DNA of 64,000 nt from Patescibacteria group bacterium (lineage in GTDB: Bacteria; Patescibacteriota; Minisyncoccia; Moranbacterales; UBA2206). The stretch covers positions 168 through 64,167 of the forward strand of contig JAUPKF010000002.1 in NCBI GenBank assembly GCA_030837625.1, written 5' to 3'. The position numbers were made by a program, and so were the translations under genes. A model generated the notes under the pieces. That model made no database searches and was not told the DNA's origin. It saw nothing but the letters and a program-made list of their open reading frames with translations. Positions 398 to 39,665 of the stretch are shown piece by piece; position 1 is the first letter of the stretch, and every line of letters begins with the position of its first letter.

Positions 398-473
<76 letters not shown>

Positions 474-2892: not shown

Positions 2893-3741
2893 TTATAAAC
2901 TTAATATCTTTGTCGCAAGTATCGTATTCTTCACGAGCATCGCTATCGTCATCGGTCCGACTCCTCCTGGAACAGGAGTAATGGCGCCCGCCACATCCTT
3001 TACTTTTTCAAAATCAACATCCCCGATTATTTTTCCGTCTTCCGATCGATTAATTCCCACATCAATCACCGCCGCTCCCGACTTTATCATATCCGCGGTA
3101 ATCAAGCCGGCTTTTCCGGCGGCTGAAACCAAAATGTCCGCCTTCTCGCAATGGGCTTTCAAATCTTTAGTTCGAGAGTGGCATACCGTAACCGTCGCGC
3201 CCGCGTTGAGAAGCATCGCCGCCATCGGTTTTCCCACGATATTGCTCTTTCCGATAACCACCGCATCTTTCCCGACTATTTCAATTTCGTATTCTTTCAG
3301 CATTTCCATAACCCCCGCCGGAGTGCAAGGAAACATCCGACCGTTTCCGGAAAGCATCCGGCCGACATTCTCCGGATGGAAGCAATCCACGTCTTTTTTG
3401 GGATCAATCGCTTCAATGACTTCCTTTTCAACTATATGCCCAGGCAGCGGCAACTGGACTAGAATGCCGTGTATTTTTGAGTCGTTATTCAACTTTTCTA
3501 TCAAATTCATAACCTCCGCCTGATTTGTATCGCTATTGAGCCGATAAACTTTCGAATGAATTCCCAGCTCCTGACAAGCTTTTTCTTTATTGCTGACGTA
3601 AATCTTCGAAGCCGGATCATCCCCCGCCAACACCACAGCCAGCCCGGGAAAGACATTTCTTTCTTTCAACTCCTTAATGTCAACGCGAAGATTTTTTTTA
3701 ATTTTTCCAGAAAGCGCTTTGCCATCTATAATACATGCCAT
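2893..3741 (-). CDS. folD: bifunctional methylenetetrahydrofolate dehydrogenase/cyclohydrolase
   Basis: FolD hallmarks: GLAVVLAGDDPASKIYVSNK, GILVQLPLP, VIGKSNIVGKPMA, PVPGGVGPMTIAML. Confidence 0.92.
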   Translation of the reverse strand: MACIIDGKALSGKIKKNLRVDIKELKERNVFPGLAVVLAGDDPASKIYVSNKEKACQELGIHSKVYRLNSDTNQAEVMNLIEKLNNDSKIHGILVQLPLPGHIVEKEVIEAIDPKKDVDCFHPENVGRMLSGNGRMFPCTPAGVMEMLKEYEIEIVGKDAVVIGKSNIVGKPMAAMLLNAGATVTVCHSRTKDLKAHCEKADILVSAAGKAGLITADMIKSGAAVIDVGINRSEDGKIIGDVDFEKVKDVAGAITPVPGGVGPMTIAMLVKNTILATKILSL

Positions 3742-6750: not shown

Positions 6751-7388
6751 TATACGATTTCCAGACACACCTTCCCCAGAATCTCCACCGCTTTTTTGTT
6801 TTTTCTTAACTCTTCAACCGAAACCATAATCTCATTGAGGGCAAGTCTTGGTTGTTTATTTAAAAATATACGTATTGATCTATCATCCGGCTTCCCTTCC
6901 ACATACTTTGCCAAAATAGCATACCATAGATAAAAAGTTTCCTTTGTTACACCCACACCCGAATCAAAATAAGGCGGGTTATTGAAATAGCCGGTTATCT
7001 TTTCCCAGTTGTTATAATTCTCATAAACTATTTCGTCTTCCAGCATCTTTGCCGGATGATTATAAAGATCTGCCGCGTATTTCAAAGAATAAAAATCATA
7101 TTTATTCAAGATCTCTTCCCGCCGCATATCGCAAAAAAGATGAAACTTCCAGCCGGCTTCGAAAGAACTTAGCCCTTCAAAGTTTAAATCAAGCACAGGA
7201 AAACGCAAATGGGTATCTTTTCTTTTTATGTTGTCGTCAATGCGCCGGATATCCGGGAAAACGCATCCCAGCAAAAACTCGTCCCGATTCAAATTTTCGG
7301 GCGGAATATTATTATCGTCCGTTCCCATCTTATCCAACCGGTCGAAATATTTTTTCGCGTAAACAATGTGCGAAACTTGTGAAGCCAT
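6750..7388 (-). CDS. hypothetical protein (212 aa)
   Basis: intact ORF with coding-like composition; no motif recognised with confidence. Confidence 0.5.
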   Translation of the reverse strand: MASQVSHIVYAKKYFDRLDKMGTDDNNIPPENLNRDEFLLGCVFPDIRRIDDNIKRKDTHLRFPVLDLNFEGLSSFEAGWKFHLFCDMRREEILNKYDFYSLKYAADLYNHPAKMLEDEIVYENYNNWEKITGYFNNPPYFDSGVGVTKETFYLWYAILAKYVEGKPDDRSIRIFLNKQPRLALNEIMVSVEELRKNKKAVEILGKVCLEIV

Positions 7389-7519
7389 AAGAAAGTATCA
7401 GGTATCTTGTATGAAGTATAATGTATTCTTCCAAAAAAGAAAAACCGCCAAGCATACTGCCTGACAGCTTCTACTCATTCGCTCCCATTAGCGAAAATTA
7501 GCCCTGCTTTCGCGAGTAG

Positions 7520-9160
7520 TTATTCGACCCAGTACTTTTTTTTCATAAATTCTTCTTCTTTTTTATTCTCCTCCTCGATCTTATTCTTAGCCTGGTTTCG
7601 CAAGGTTCCGATATCTTCTTTATTCAATTCCGCGGATATTTTCAGCAAATCTTTTTTATTGTTCAGTTTGGGATCGTCAATAACTTTCATGAGCAAAACA
7701 TCCAAAATAGCTCCGATTTTCGGCCCGGGCCCCAGCGCCAATTTTTTTATCAAATCATCGCCGTTTATTTTCAGCTGTTTTACGGAAATGGCGTCACGCG
7801 AAACTTTTTCCACCATAAATTTGAAGTGACGGAGTTTATACGGCACGGCTTTTGGCACGCCCGAGCCAAGCCGATCAGCAATCCTGACGTCGATCAAATC
7901 ATTGATATTTTCCAAGCCGACTTTGCGAACCACCCGCCGCACACCGGCTTCCCCCACTTCATCAACGTTATAATAGAACATGTGATTTTTGACCAAAAGC
8001 GAAACCTTGTCGATTATATTTCTTGAAAACCTTAACCGCTCCAAAATCCTTTCAGCCATTTTCGCTCCGGCGTATTCGTGGTTATAAAAGGTCGCGTTTT
8101 CGCCCGCGCCTCTCTTAGTTTTCGGCTTGCCAATATCGTGCAGAAGCGCCGCCAGCCGCACTTCCAACTTTTCCGACGGACATTTTTCCAAACTAGCCAC
8201 CAAGTGTTTATAAACAGTATTATACGGGCCATAGTAATGATGATGGCTTTGAGTCACGCCGTATCCGGCTTCGATTTCGGGAATGATATATTGAAGCAAT
8301 CCTGTCTCATGAAGCAATTCAATCCCCCGCGCCGGAGCGGGAGATAGAATAATTTTCTCCAGTTCGTCTTTAATTCTTTCCGCTGAAATATATTTTAAAT
8401 TGGAAGCGTTTTTATTTATGGCCGCGAAAGTCTCGTTATCAATTTTCCAGCTTTGTATTTCTTTTTTATCATTTTTTAATTTTGCATTGTCATTTCGATT
8501 TTTTCGGCCAGAGGCTGATCCGCCTTTGGCGGAGATTTTTGATTTTTGATTTTCTAAAGTTACAGCAAACCTCACGGCGCGCATCATCCTCAACGCGTCT
8601 TCATCAAATCTTTCGTTCGCATCCCCTACTGCTTTAATAATTTTATTACTCAAATCCTCCCGCCCATTGTAAGGATCAACTATTCTATATTCACTCTCAT
8701 TCTCTTTAATTTGTTCCGCTTTAGCGAGTGCAATAGCGTTTATCGTAAAATCCCTTCTCGACAAATCTTCTTCCAAGCTTTTGGCAAACTTAATCTCATC
8801 CGGATGCCTCTTATCACTATATTTTGACTCAACCCGATAAGTAGTTATTTCAACTATGATGTACTTGTCTTCTTCTTTGCTGTTTTGGATTTTGTTTTTT
8901 GGATTTTGAGATTTATTTGGAATTTGGAATTTTGGATTTGGGATTTTAACAGCTACTGTCCCAAACTCATTCTCATACACACTATCCGGAAATAATTTCA
9001 AAATCTCCTCCGGCTTCGCGCTTGTCGCCACATCCCAATCTTTCGGAATTTTATCCAATAGCATATCCCGCACGCATCCGCCCACGACAAACGCCTCAAA
9101 GCCGTTTTCTTCAAGTTTTCCAATCACTTCAACAACATACTTTGGAATTTTTTTGATCAT
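7520..9160 (-). CDS. cca: CCA-adding tRNA nucleotidyltransferase / poly(A) polymerase family with HD domain, carrying in-frame repeat insertions
   Basis: N-term GGCVRDMLL...DWDVAT (PolyA_pol head), HD region HDIGKP; start set at the internal Met (MIKKIPKY, 9160) because the upstream 33 codons overlap the neighbouring gene; the segments NPKFQIPNKSQNPKNKIQNSKEE and KNDKKEIQSWKIDNE are encoded by GAATTT-family repeat DNA. Confidence 0.85.
   Translation of the reverse strand: MIKKIPKYVVEVIGKLEENGFEAFVVGGCVRDMLLDKIPKDWDVATSAKPEEILKLFPDSVYENEFGTVAVKIPNPKFQIPNKSQNPKNKIQNSKEEDKYIIVEITTYRVESKYSDKRHPDEIKFAKSLEEDLSRRDFTINAIALAKAEQIKENESEYRIVDPYNGREDLSNKIIKAVGDANERFDEDALRMMRAVRFAVTLENQKSKISAKGGSASGRKNRNDNAKLKNDKKEIQSWKIDNETFAAINKNASNLKYISAERIKDELEKIILSPAPARGIELLHETGLLQYIIPEIEAGYGVTQSHHHYYGPYNTVYKHLVASLEKCPSEKLEVRLAALLHDIGKPKTKRGAGENATFYNHEYAGAKMAERILERLRFSRNIIDKVSLLVKNHMFYYNVDEVGEAGVRRVVRKVGLENINDLIDVRIADRLGSGVPKAVPYKLRHFKFMVEKVSRDAISVKQLKINGDDLIKKLALGPGPKIGAILDVLLMKVIDDPKLNNKKDLLKISAELNKEDIGTLRNQAKNKIEEENKKEEEFMKKKYWVE
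8455..8560. repeat. GAATTT/GGATTTT low-complexity repeat inside the cca coding region
   Basis: attttttaattttgcattgtcatttcgatttt...gatttttgatttttgattttctaaag. Confidence 0.55.
8878..8952. repeat. GAATTT/GGATTTT low-complexity repeat inside the cca coding region
   Basis: gctgttttggattttgttttttggattttgagatttatttggaatttggaattttggatttgggattttaacagc; the gctgtt...aacagc ends are inverted. Confidence 0.65.
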
Positions 9161-9245
9161 AGCATCTTCATTATCCCTCTCTCCCATAATCGGGAGGGAT
9201 GTCCAACGTACTCGTTGGACAGAGAGGGCACAACCGCTGCTGGTA

Positions 9246-10010
9246 TTATACACTACCATCCACCGACGAAAAATTCAAATAATTTTCCCGTTCTATCGAA
9301 CTCCACACCATCTCAAACATCGACCGATACGTTGCAACTACATCCCCGCTTTCGATCACCACCGCCATTGGCGTGTCTTTGTAGGAAATGATTCCGACTT
9401 TGTTTCCAAAGATCACGTTATCGGTTGGAAGCATCCTCTCATTAGGCGCGATTTTGAATTGATGATTCTCGGAAGCATTGGTTTTGGCAAACTCGATTGA
9501 TTTTTCGTCACCTTGTAAAATCTCCCTGATCAGAACTTTCTCTTTCTTCACCACGTTCAGATATTTATTCACTTGCCGCAACACCCCCGGAGTTATTCGC
9601 CCGATTGATCCATAAAACAAAATTTCTTTTTCCTTGAATATCTCATCCCATAGCTTGGCCACGTTTTCTTCGCCTTGATAATACACCACTTTGGGCTTTT
9701 CTTTCTGGGAATTATATATAGCCATCAATTCTGGCAAATTTTGTTGGATTATCTCTTGCTTTTCTTCGTGTTCCTCCAAAAGTCTCTGCGGTGACTGAGC
9801 GGTATAGATAGCTTTTACTTTTTTAGGAAGCAGTGTCACTAGCCCCTTCATCCGCAATTCTTCCAAAAGGAGATAGGTAGTCGGCCGTTTTGTCCCGGCC
9901 TTAATCGAAATAGCCGGCACCGACCCGCTTCCCATCTGCAAAAGAGCCACATAAACCTTGGCTTGTTTTTCGTTTAGTCCCAGATGTTTCAGGGCTTCAA
10001 ATAGTTCCAT
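9246..10010 (-). CDS. TrmB-family transcriptional regulator
   Basis: N-terminal winged HTH (LGLNEKQAKVYVALLQMGSGSVPAISIKAGTKRPTTYLLLEELRMKGLV), TrmB-type C-terminal domain. Confidence 0.75.
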   Translation of the reverse strand: MELFEALKHLGLNEKQAKVYVALLQMGSGSVPAISIKAGTKRPTTYLLLEELRMKGLVTLLPKKVKAIYTAQSPQRLLEEHEEKQEIIQQNLPELMAIYNSQKEKPKVVYYQGEENVAKLWDEIFKEKEILFYGSIGRITPGVLRQVNKYLNVVKKEKVLIREILQGDEKSIEFAKTNASENHQFKIAPNERMLPTDNVIFGNKVGIISYKDTPMAVVIESGDVVATYRSMFEMVWSSIERENYLNFSSVDGSV

Positions 10011-11048: not shown

Positions 11049-11057
11049 ATCAACTTG

Positions 11058-11129
11058 TGTCCCCGCCAAGAATCGAACTTGGATCCAGAGCTTAGGAGTC
11101 TCTTGTTCTATCCGTTGAACTACGGGGAC
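11058..11129 (-). tRNA. tRNA-Arg(CCT)
   Basis: acceptor gtccccg/cggggac, D-arm gttcaacggatagaac, anticodon loop ctCCTaa, T-loop ttcgatt. Confidence 0.75.
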
Positions 11130-11215: not shown

Positions 11216-11324
11216 AGAACTAACGTGGACGATACTGGACTCCCCGCCTGCCGCGAAATCCCACATAGTCTCCTGTCAGTAAATTAGTTTTCTATCCTAA
11301 ATAATCAATAAGAATCTTTTTGGA

Positions 11325-11396
11325 GCGGCATTTCGGGCAGGGAACCAGTGACAGCCCGAATGTGAATCGAGCGCTCTAATTTATCCCCCCACCAAT
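11325..11396 (-). pseudogene. degenerate tRNA-Val(CAC)-like 3' portion (outer copy) adjacent to the intact tRNA-Val(CAC)
   Basis: reverse complement ggggggataaattagagcgctcgattcacattcgggctgtcactggttccctgcccga has an anticodon arm ctcga/ttCACat/tcggg but a degraded T-arm and acceptor; it parallels the intact outer copy at 28078-28150. Confidence 0.45.
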
Positions 11397-11400
11397 TGGG

Positions 11401-11474
<74 letters not shown>

Positions 11475-11534
11475 AATTGGTGGGGGGACGAGCTGAGCTA
11501 ATCGTCCAATAAATAGTACTGACACTTTTGATTG

Positions 11535-11607
11535 TGGACCCAAGGAGACTCGAACTCCTGACCCCTTCCATGCCATGGAAGTGCTCTACCAGCTGAGCTA
11601 TGGGCCC
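11535..11607 (-). tRNA. tRNA-Ala(GGC)
   Basis: acceptor gggccca with G3:U70, anticodon stem cttcc/ggaag with loop atGGCat. Confidence 0.85.
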
Positions 11608-18852: not shown

Positions 18853-18995
18853 AGTTTACGAACTACCTGCCCGAAATGCTTCGATACTAAATCAGATTAA
18901 TAATTTCTGACGGTTTAGTTTAAGTTGTCCAAGAAGTACTTAATAACAACTTGGCATTTCGAAGCAGGCGGGCGAAATTAACGAAATACGAAATT
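18853..18995. mobile_element. MITE, about 140 bp (tttacgaactacctgcccgaaatgcttcga ... ggcatttcgaagcaggcgggcgaaattaacgaaatacgaaa)
   Basis: 26-bp terminal inverted repeats; paralogs at 24778-24928 (inverted) and 39521-39665. Confidence 0.75.
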
Positions 18996-24777: not shown

Positions 24778-24928
24778 AATTCGTATTTCGTACATTCGTA
24801 CAAATTCGCCCGCCTGCTTCGAAATGTTAAGCGGCTATTAAGTACCCAACCCTGTCAGATTATATTTTTAAAAAAACCTATTACCAGCTCAATTAGTATC
24901 GAAGCATTTCGGGCAGGTAATTCGTAGA
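24778..24928. mobile_element. MITE (ctgcccgaaatgcttcga family), inverted orientation
   Basis: ttcgtatttcgtacattcgtacaaattcgcccgcctgcttcgaaatg ... atcgaagcatttcgggcaggtaattcgtag. Confidence 0.75.
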
Positions 24929-27873: not shown

Positions 27874-27952
27874 TTACCGTGAAAAATTAAATCCGCTCCT
27901 TTTGAGCGGTTTTATTGACTCGAGAGATGTTTTGAAATAGTATGGATATTAG

Positions 27953-27988
27953 CAGGGGTCTGTAGCTCAGCTCGTCCCCCCACCAATT
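27953..27988 (+). pseudogene. 5' part of an outer tRNA-Val(GAC)-like gene (acceptor + D-stem 5' strand) interrupted in its D-loop
   Basis: gggtctgtagctcagct then cgtccccccaccaattgg leads into the inner tRNA; together with 28078-28150 it folds as a tRNA with a 6/7-paired acceptor. Confidence 0.45.
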
Positions 27989-28062
27989 GGGTGTTTAGCT
28001 CAGCTGGTTAGAGCGCCACATTGACATTGTGGAGGTCACTGGTTCGAGTCCAGTAATACCCA
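27989..28062 (+). tRNA. tRNA-Val(GAC), nested inside the D-loop of an outer tRNA-Val-like gene
   Basis: acceptor gggtgtt/aataccc, anticodon stem ccaca/tgtgg with loop ttGACat, T-loop ttcgagt; flanked by the 18-bp perfect inverted repeat ccccccaccaattgggtg / cacccaattggtgggggg. Confidence 0.85.
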
Positions 28063-28077
28063 CCCAATTGGTGGGGG

Positions 28078-28150
28078 GATAAATCAGAGCGCTACATTGA
28101 CATTGTAGAGGTTTCAGAGGTTCGAGTCCTCTCACGCCCACAGGAAGTTT
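28078..28150 (+). pseudogene. 3' part of the outer tRNA-Val(GAC)-like gene (D-stem 3' strand, anticodon arm, T-arm, acceptor 3' strand)
   Basis: ataaatcagagcgc tacattgacattgta(anticodon GAC) gaggtttc agaggttcgagtcctct cacgccc a. Confidence 0.5.
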
Positions 28151-28165
28151 TTTAAAAAAATGATT

Positions 28166-28458
28166 GGGACCATAGCTCAGCGGTAGAGCAGGCGGCTCAA
28201 AAAATATTTAGGGCTGTTTGAGAAGTAATTTTCAAGCGAATATCTGTCAAACTCGGGGAAACCTAAGGCGCCAAAAGCGCTACGGCAATCCCGAGCCAAG
28301 CCCCGACGCGTGTCGTGGAAGGTGTAGAGACTAGACGGCAGACATCCCGATATCATCGGGATGAAGGGATAGTCCAGCTCCCAAACTCGAGAGGGGTTGC
28401 GAAAGCAATAGTGAGAAGCATAACCGCTTGGTCGCTGGTTCGAATCCAGCTGGTCCCA
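28166..28458 (+). tRNA. tRNA-Met(CAT) (elongator-type or tRNA-Ile2 precursor) interrupted by a group I intron; exons 28166-28197 and 28419-28458
   Basis: exon1 gggaccatagctcagcggtagagcaggcggct + exon2 cataaccgcttggtcgctggttcgaatccagctggtccca folds into a canonical cloverleaf with anticodon CAT; G1:C72, so it is not an initiator. Confidence 0.8.
28198..28418 (+). other. group I intron (221 nt) in the anticodon loop of tRNA-Met(CAT), inserted after U33
   Basis: 5' exon ends in U and the intron ends in G; conserved group I core elements R (gtgtagagactagacgg) and S (gaagggatagtccag) pair gacta/tagtc to form P7. Confidence 0.75.
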
Positions 28459-28501
28459 CAGATAAAAAACTCGACTTTTTAAAAAGCCGAGTTTTTTAAA
28501 T

Positions 28502-39521: not shown

Positions 39522-39665
39522 TTTACGAACTACCTGCCCGAAATGCTTCGACGCTATCTGAGGTTAAATAATAACCTACGAGCTGAATTAGTTAATCAGT
39601 GTCGATAATAAGCAACCAGTTGGCATTTCGAAGCAGGCGGGCGAAATTAACAGCATACGAAAAAT
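39521..39665. mobile_element. MITE (ctgcccgaaatgcttcga family)
   Basis: aatttacgaactacctgcccgaaatgcttcgacgc ... ggcatttcgaagcaggcgggcgaaattaacagcatacgaaaaatg. Confidence 0.75.

Follow-up and report, generated by a model that had tools for sequence, protein, structure and literature searches.

Introduction

Transfer RNA (tRNA) genes are usually held to be among the most stable genes of a genome. Several genetic elements are, nonetheless, known to use them as targets. Integrative elements, such as genomic islands and prophages with tyrosine integrases, insert into tRNA genes and restore them, and in archaea split, permuted and multi-intron tRNA genes are matured by bulge-helix-bulge splicing, which involves an endonuclease and a ligase. 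This report concerns an arrangement found in the genome of a Patescibacteria group bacterium (lineage UBA2206, Moranbacterales; assembly GCA_030837625.1, contig JAUPKF010000002.1, positions 168 to 64,167), in which a complete tRNA-Val gene stands, flanked by inverted repeats, inside the D-loop of another tRNA-Val gene of the same anticodon. The whole stretch of 64,000 nucleotides (nt) that was analysed is called the window, and its two nested loci are named locus A (27956-28140, forward strand, anticodon GAC) and locus B (11226-11507, reverse strand, anticodon CAC for both tRNAs). The outer tRNA-Val is probably the resident gene, now a pseudogene, which has been interrupted by a protein-less replacement cassette of 109 bp carrying a working tRNA of the same anticodon.

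With the integrative elements the locus shares a disrupted tRNA gene and an element that supplies the sequence needed to keep a functional copy. Those elements, however, span kilobases, encode their own integrase, target the 3′ part of the gene, restore only the part that they displace and are bounded by direct repeats, whereas the insert described here has 109 bp, brings a whole tRNA, occupies a D-loop or a T-loop and has inverted repeats and no direct ones. The likeness to archaeal split tRNA genes resides in the interruption at non-canonical positions, D- and T-loops included, and in a GC-rich helix near the junctions; there the joined exons are functional, while here the outer exons decay and the insert itself would be the functional tRNA. 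As for processing, the stems of rRNA operons, which are substrates of RNase III, form a long leader-trailer helix around a structured RNA that is cut from a longer transcript, and a comparable role is proposed below for the repeat arms. To our knowledge, leader-trailer stems around single bacterial tRNAs have not been described.

The nearest studied parallel is SegB of phages T4 and T6, a free-standing GIY-YIG endonuclease that cuts in tRNA genes at RAWTSGAAC (PMC13096335), a motif that we read as a T-loop sequence. In that system a selfish nuclease acting at a conserved tRNA loop favours the inheritance or amplification of linked tRNA genes; relatives of the bacterium studied here likewise have small GIY-YIG genes fused 5′ of intact tRNA genes, next to the ghost of the former gene. 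The nested cassettes differ from it in having no nuclease gene, in residing in a cellular host and not in a phage, and in having the replacement tRNA enclosed by inverted repeats within the old gene. A break at a conserved site that is caused by a selfish insert and patchily distributed in environmental genomes is also seen in fractured genes whose halves are separated by a free-standing homing endonuclease (PMC2677866), but their protein halves are rejoined by split inteins, whereas here a complete replacement copy is provided. In full-text literature searches, no description was found of tRNA genes nested in one another in bacteria, nor of Patescibacteria cassettes that combine GIY-YIG and tRNA genes; the closest publication deals with group I introns in Patescibacteria tRNA genes and mentions neither nested genes nor cassettes (PMC13011429).

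Anatomy of the Nested tRNA Genes

Locus A lies downstream of a promoter-like site (TTGACT-17-TAGTAT, 27915-27943, forward strand), which is the sole such site near the locus. The outer 5′ piece (27956-27975) comprises the acceptor 5′ strand GGGTCTG, TA, the D-stem strand GCTC and the D-loop bases AGCTCGT, in which G18 has changed to C. Then come the left arm CCCCCCACCAATT (27976-27988), the inner tRNA-Val(GAC) (27989-28062), a CCC trailer with the right arm AATTGGTGGGGGG (28063-28078, the arm itself at 28066-28078), and the linker ATAAAT (28079-28084), which makes the right end of the cassette asymmetric. The outer 3′ piece (28085-28140) contributes the D-stem 3′ strand, the anticodon arm (GAC), a variable loop with two additional T, the T-arm, the acceptor strand CACGCCC and A73.

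The inner gene, presumed to be functional, scores 70.6 bits with the Rfam tRNA model and is called by ARAGORN too, and both programs bear out the nesting that had been read from the letters in an initial annotation of this DNA. The inverted repeat had been given there as perfect and 18 bp long; it is 100% complementary, and its length by the program used is 19 nt (27975-27993 and 28061-28079), its left strand there extending 5 nt into the inner tRNA. An 18-mer of the arm occurs four times in the window, exclusively at loci A and B, against a shuffle expectation of 0.02. The outer acceptor stem forms six of its seven pairs, as had been claimed, and the outer segments can indeed be folded as a tRNA: once the insert is spliced out in silico, ARAGORN draws a tRNA-Val(GAC) at two of the nine junctions tried. 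Taken by itself, the outer 3′ part reaches 24.7 bits as a tRNA, the gathering score being 29.

Locus B repeats this architecture on the reverse strand, downstream of tRNA-Ala(GGC) and its promoter. The initial annotation had noticed the recurrence, the CAC anticodon and the opposite strand correctly, but it placed the locus at 11325-11500 and took the outer copy for a more degraded one; the span is 11226-11507, and the outer gene is complete apart from a second insertion. Its 5′ piece GGACGATTAGCTCAGCTCGT (11488-11507) agrees in the acceptor with the intact native tRNA-Val(CAC) of two relatives (L163 and L166, see below). The cassette of 109 nt (11379-11487) consists of the left arm (11475-11487), the inner tRNA-Val(CAC) (11401-11474), CCC plus the right arm (11385-11400) and the linker (11379-11384). 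The middle piece of the outer gene (11342-11378) holds the D-loop 3′ part, the D-stem 3′ strand, the anticodon arm (CAC), a variable loop with altered bases, the T-stem 5′ strand and the T-loop bases TTC. Here, between TTC and GAGT, the second insertion of 99 nt (11243-11341) interrupts the T-loop with the same precision, and the 3′ terminal piece GAGTCCAGTATCGTCCA (11226-11242) closes the gene with an acceptor 3′ strand that pairs 7/7 with 11501-11507. After removal of both insertions ARAGORN draws a perfect 74-nt tRNA-Val(CAC) with seven of seven acceptor pairs.

The 99-nt insertion contains neither a tRNA nor an evident open reading frame, and its ends form an imperfect inverted repeat (CCTGCCCGAAAT.. 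and ..ATTTCGCGGCAGGCGGG). The initial 14 nt of this insertion (CCTGCCCGAAATGC) reappear within a longer repeated motif, TACGAAYTACCTGCCCGAAATGCTTCGA, with copies of CCTGCCCGAAATGC at 18866-18879 (forward strand), 24904-24917 (reverse) and 39533-39546 (forward). One copy of TACGAAYTACCTGCCCGAAATGCTTCGA shortly precedes the start codon of FtsH, and the sister lineage L002 has conserved it; the motif corresponds to no Rfam family.

At both loci the cassette measures exactly 109 nt and has the same composition (CCCCCCACCAATT, a 74-nt tRNA, CCC, AATTGGTGGGGGG and ATAAAT). It is inserted after nucleotide 20 of the outer D-loop, and its removal leaves a normal D-loop of 9 nt with neither target duplication nor deletion; no direct repeats flank the insert. 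Apart from the inner anticodon arm and a single D-loop base, the two cassettes have 100% identity, which extends into the neighbouring bases of the outer D-loop (AGCTCGT). No open reading frame is present in them. When the region is folded as RNA the arms pair (z = -6.0). The inner genes must be read from transcripts that start outside them, because the promoter-like site of locus A lies upstream of the outer 5′ piece and locus B lies downstream of tRNA-Ala(GGC) and its promoter.

The nested arrangement is no assembly artefact. The end of a Logan contig of independent origin (L001), ...GGGGTCTGTAGCTCAGCTCGTCCCCCCACCAATTGGGT, falls inside the junction between the outer 5′ piece and the left arm, and the nested locus of a relative is alike in three assemblies, two of which are identical over the region (L172 and L173) while the third (L115) has the same sequence by inspection.

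The Same Sites in Related Genomes

By FtsH and other proteins, the genome of the window is that of a Moranbacteria-like member of the Patescibacteria. The gene order around loci A and B is conserved in relatives (designated here by L and a number), where the two sites are found in several states. At the site of locus A, a lone and intact tRNA-Val(GAC) is present in L023, with a T-arm of the outer type and no ghost. The sister lineage L002, whose FtsH is 91% identical to that of the window, possesses the inner gene, the right arm, ATAAAT and the outer 3′ part, without the outer 5′ piece and the left arm. In L111 an inner-type gene is followed by a decayed ghost of the outer 3′ part, and in L042 and L095 an inner-type gene stands alone. 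At the site of locus B, L163, L165 and L166 carry an intact tRNA-Val(CAC) whose acceptor strand, GGACGAT or GGACAAT, is as in outer B. From these intact and uninterrupted counterparts at the same syntenic sites, the outer genes can be recognised as the resident ones, and the nested state is an intermediate of a series at whose end only the inner gene is left. An adjoining gene for a Xer-like recombinase is syntenic in relatives with or without a filled site.

The outer halves had alternatively been suggested to reassociate after excision of the inner tRNA, in a split or permuted arrangement. In this reading, modelled on archaeal split tRNAs, the halves would be paired through the arms or ligated into a second tRNA-Val, and the state of the stems is compatible with it, since outer B has kept its four stems whole and outer A has lost a single pair; the insertion is intron-like in its precision, and the arms would hold the halves together once the inner tRNA has been removed. 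The loops tell otherwise. G18 is lost in every outer copy (C in the window, T in L115) and variable-loop positions are changed, the T-loop of outer B bears the 99-nt insertion, and outer A has an acceptor mismatch. Moreover, L002 is devoid of the outer 5′ half, L115 has lost the outer 5′ acceptor strand, and in the outer tRNA-Arg of L163, described below, the anticodon loop is destroyed. No bulge-helix-bulge is evident at the junctions AGCTCGT/CCCCCC and GGGGGG/ATAAAT, where no helix is present other than the arm stem of 13 bp within the insert, bordered by single strands of 7-8 nt. A search of 27900-28200 with Rfam, even at E ≤ 10, returned tRNA only and no group I or group II ribozyme match. 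A functional second tRNA made of the outer halves is therefore considered highly improbable. The other possibility raised in the initial annotation, a mobile element that targets tRNA genes, fared better, being favoured by the intact genes at the same sites, the patchiness of the filled sites and the homologous tRNA-Arg cassette.

The same cassette recurs in a distant relative, L115 (and in L172 and L173), as a nested tRNA-Val(CAC) downstream of tRNA-Ala(GGC) at the locus orthologous to locus B, with the same downstream order as in the window (tRNA-Ala(CGC), tRNA-Arg(CCT)). Its arms, CCCCCACCACTT and AAGTGGTGGGGG, show one compensatory change from A-U to C-G and have both C/G runs shorter by one, and its linker is ATAAAG. 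In an alignment of only three sequences, to be read as a description, 128 of 128 pair cells are standard in the arms, the inner cloverleaf, and the D-stem and anticodon stem of the outer gene; covariation shuffles carry little weight with so few sequences, and the raw pair counts alone were used. The cassette of L115 lies in a different resident allele, with the 3′ acceptor strand TACACCC and not the ATCGTCC of the window.

The CCA-adding enzyme of the window is 78% identical to that of L163, 76% to that of L165 and 68% to that of L115. L163 and L165 have an empty site despite an enzyme identity higher than that of L115, where the site is filled. This patchiness, for which protein identities of few genomes are a crude proxy of a tree, suggests that the cassette was inserted at least twice or spread horizontally. 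The features expected of insertions of the homing type, namely a precise position in a conserved target, empty sites and a patchy distribution, are all found here, and mobility of the cassette is likely, though not proven.

Two further routes to the nested genes were considered and rejected. A retro-inserted mature tRNA would end in CCA, while the trailer reads CCC, and L002 does not have such bases. The inner anticodon arm might have been copied from the outer gene; the likeness at locus A, however, is general to tRNA-Val(GAC) of Patescibacteria, and at locus B the stems differ. A gene with a body of the inner type and an anticodon stem of the outer type exists in L102.

A Second tRNA Cargo

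Every tRNA in the fetched loci was checked for flanking inverted repeats. On the reverse strand of the L163 locus (about 2960-3190), a tRNA-Arg(CCT) lies between CCCCGCACCAAAAA and TTTTTGGTGCGGGG, inverted repeats of 14 nt, which are followed by TGAAAT. This unit is inserted in the T-loop of a resident outer tRNA-Arg(CCT) that, when spliced, matches the intact 74-nt gene of L115 at 69 aligned positions and whose anticodon loop has already been destroyed. L165 retains the outer 5′ part and the inner tRNA-Arg gene, L159 the inner gene, the right arm and a remnant, and both the window (tRNA-Arg(CCT), 11057-11129) and L166 have the inner type alone with no remnant. The Arg and the Val cassettes have in common an arm core, CCCCSCACCAA, and a tail, WKAAAT, and look like one cassette family with interchangeable tRNA cargo.

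The second cargo bears on the question of whether the nested form could have arisen locally, that is, once, by duplication or rearrangement in situ, followed by vertical descent and gene conversion within the genome, the plain genes having been regained by replacement. The constant match of inner and outer anticodons would fit such an origin, the near identity of the two cassettes of the window fits gene conversion, and the tRNA alleles at this locus are mosaic among relatives, so that replacement does happen. For the Val loci alone, a single vertically inherited rearrangement is possible. Nevertheless, homologous arms carry an unrelated tRNA-Arg in another loop, which duplication in situ cannot yield. 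In addition, inner and outer genes differ in the acceptor and the T-arm (62 aligned positions match between outer A, 77 nt, and inner A, 74 nt); the outer genes resemble the native genes of relatives, while the inner ones are of a type found elsewhere without ghosts; and the cassettes of the window and of L115 stand in the different resident alleles noted above. A local origin is, consequently, unlikely.

Another explanation is a miniature inverted-repeat transposable element (MITE) that has a tRNA as its chance cargo and depends for movement on a transposase gene at another place in the genome. Perfect terminal inverted repeats of 13-19 nt and the lack of coding capacity would suit a MITE, as would the conservation of CCCCSCACCAA between differing cargo, which suggests recognition by a protein. 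A target-site duplication, however, is present at none of the four insertions, the window has only two copies, both inside tRNA-Val genes, and the inner tRNA always runs in the direction of its host (both copies of the window, L115/L172/L173 and L163, a small sample); accordingly, the two orientations of an inverton were not observed among these copies. A staggered cut of the MfeI type with an AATT target duplication, suggested by the CAATTG core of the arm, was discarded, since the corresponding bases of L115, ACTT in the left flank and AAGT in the right, are inverted and not direct repeats.

The initial annotation had also considered a generic MITE, to be found at many non-tRNA sites. A scan of JGI metagenomes with an 18-mer (the arm plus the first five bases of tRNA-Val, a pattern that empty arms or arms with other cargo would escape) gave 13 matches, all due to chance and unrelated to tRNA. 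Scans of IMG/VR for the arms and the D-loop hairpin gave nothing relevant, with no true copy among 15 viral matches; neither set of arm matches was accompanied by a partner arm or a tRNA. When GTDB genomes were scanned with the inner T-arm and acceptor, which represent a generic bacterial tRNA-Val body, one of 118 loci was nested (L115) among the matches listed. A MITE-like transposon thus seems quite improbable.

Nuclease Genes, Hairpins and Ghosts

In three relatives, a small GIY-YIG gene (85-97 amino acids) separates a 5′ ghost, which has a hairpin in its D-loop, from the intact tRNA gene directly downstream. At the Val CAC locus of L159 (3284-3577, reverse strand) the order is a ghost (GGACAAT TAGCTCAGTTT) with a palindrome of 28 nt, a GIY-YIG protein of 97 amino acids and a different, intact tRNA-Val(CAC). 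L024 (about 7748-8011, reverse strand) has a ghost tRNA-Met, the hairpin GCCCAGCAAGTTTGCTGGGC, a GIY-YIG protein of 88 amino acids and an intact tRNA-Met. In L126 (1824-2048, forward strand), a ghost tRNA-Leu(TAG) contains CCTGCCTGCCGGCAGGCAGG exactly between G18 and G19 and is followed by a GIY-YIG homologue and an intact tRNA-Leu(TAG). The frames of L159 and L024 end at a TAG within the D-loop of the intact tRNA, and their products match Pfam PF01541 with E = 1e-16 and E = 3e-14, respectively. An endonuclease gene in or next to the insert, as in a homing cassette, was found only for these hairpin-type cassettes.

The window itself contains a related trace. Directly upstream of the intact tRNA-Val(TAC) (476-549), on the reverse strand, a 5′ ghost of tRNA-Val(TAC) with the same acceptor strand occupies 550-634. 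Its D-loop harbours a palindromic hairpin of 28 nt (589-616) with a perfect stem of 13 bp (CAGCCATAGGCTG AC CAGCCTATGGCTG). The same hairpin family adjoins the GIY-YIG gene in L159 and is also seen in a ghost of L005, the ghosts of the window and of L005 having lost the nuclease gene. Each of the three tRNA-Val genes of the window thus bears such a scar.

A Model of tRNA Gene Replacement

According to the replacement reading, the inner gene would be transcribed from the promoter of the resident gene, the outer 5′ piece serving as a leader. The arms would pair as a stem of leader and trailer and so keep the inner pre-tRNA separate from the tRNA-like sequences on either side; this stem may prevent mispairing with the nearly identical D-arm and 3′ parts of the outer gene, or serve as a cleavage site. 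RNase P, a 3′ nuclease and the CCA-adding enzyme (encoded at 7520-9259) would then release and finish the inner tRNA, the CCA being added after cutting, in keeping with the trailer CCC.

Regarding the origin of the insertions, cassettes of the family would enter the most conserved loops, the D-loop in the case of Val and the T-loop in that of Arg. Insertion might follow a break in the loop, the cassette being copied in by recombination with tRNA flanks; in relatives, small GIY-YIG nuclease cassettes strike the same loops. The matching of the anticodons would be explained if the loss of a single-copy isoacceptor gene can be borne only when the incoming cassette makes up for it. A cassette would survive only where it brings the same isoacceptor, and the outer halves would erode until the inner gene remains.

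Several observations weigh against this account. The 64-kb window yielded no nuclease, transposase or recombinase that would be specific to the cassette, and tblastn with two of the GIY-YIG proteins gave no match there; the cassettes themselves contain no endonuclease gene. L163 and L165 may have re-acquired an intact gene, since the tRNA genes of the clade look horizontally exchanged. In L002 the inner gene works although the left arm is missing, which means that the stem can be dispensed with, and the support for a role of the arms consists of one compensatory pair and sequence conservation. Finally, the exact 18-mer of arm and tRNA start turned up nowhere in the JGI metagenomes or in IMG/VR; the cassette, if mobile, is rare and confined to this lineage.

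On a broader level, the finding can be placed as a form of target-restoring or homing-type selfish insertion. We tentatively propose a new class of element, a non-autonomous replacement-tRNA cassette flanked by inverted repeats that homes into the D- or T-loop of its cognate gene, kills it and replaces it; this wider proposal is more doubtful than the replacement reading of the two loci. If the proposal is true, such a class would drive a rapid turnover of tRNA genes in Patescibacteria and may belong to an arms race in which nucleases attack the conserved loops of tRNA genes. The cassette, if mobile, would be a minimal selfish element whose sole cargo is the gene that it destroys. In a reduced genome, single-copy isoacceptor genes appear to be overwritten from within, and the relatives keep intact, nested, half-ghost and clean-replacement stages.

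The same process would explain the large tRNA differences at syntenic sites among close relatives of the Candidate Phyla Radiation (CPR), the tRNA fragments and hairpins that adjoin tRNA genes in CPR genomes, and the oddly long genes (79 nt, anticodon at position 36) that standard tRNA finders report here. It would also provide a bacterial case against which hypotheses on how the split and intron-bearing tRNA genes of archaea arose could be compared.

Neighboring tRNA Genes

Directly 3′ of locus A, the tRNA-Met(CAT) gene (28163-28459, forward strand) has its anticodon loop split by a short group I intron (28188-28394; Rfam RF00028, 71 bits). The intron is present in L005, L023 and L027, and the same gene is free of it in the sister lineage L002. 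An apparently group I-like intron, judged from the sequence after GATTGAA, also interrupts the anticodon loop of the tRNA-Phe downstream of tRNA-Val(TAC) in L077, L117 and L126; the tRNA-Phe of the window (398-472) is uninterrupted.

The tRNA-Ala(GGC) upstream of locus B (11534-11607) exists in two clearly different types among relatives, one shared by the window, L163 and L165, and the other by L159 and L115. This distribution departs from the protein similarities and suggests a frequent exchange of tRNA alleles. In L027, a long AT-rich inverted repeat (CAGTGATCAGGGAACAATGATTAAGAATA ... TATTCTTTTAATCCTTGTTCCCTAATCACTG) is located between tRNA-Met and tRNA-Val, at about 7300-7400.

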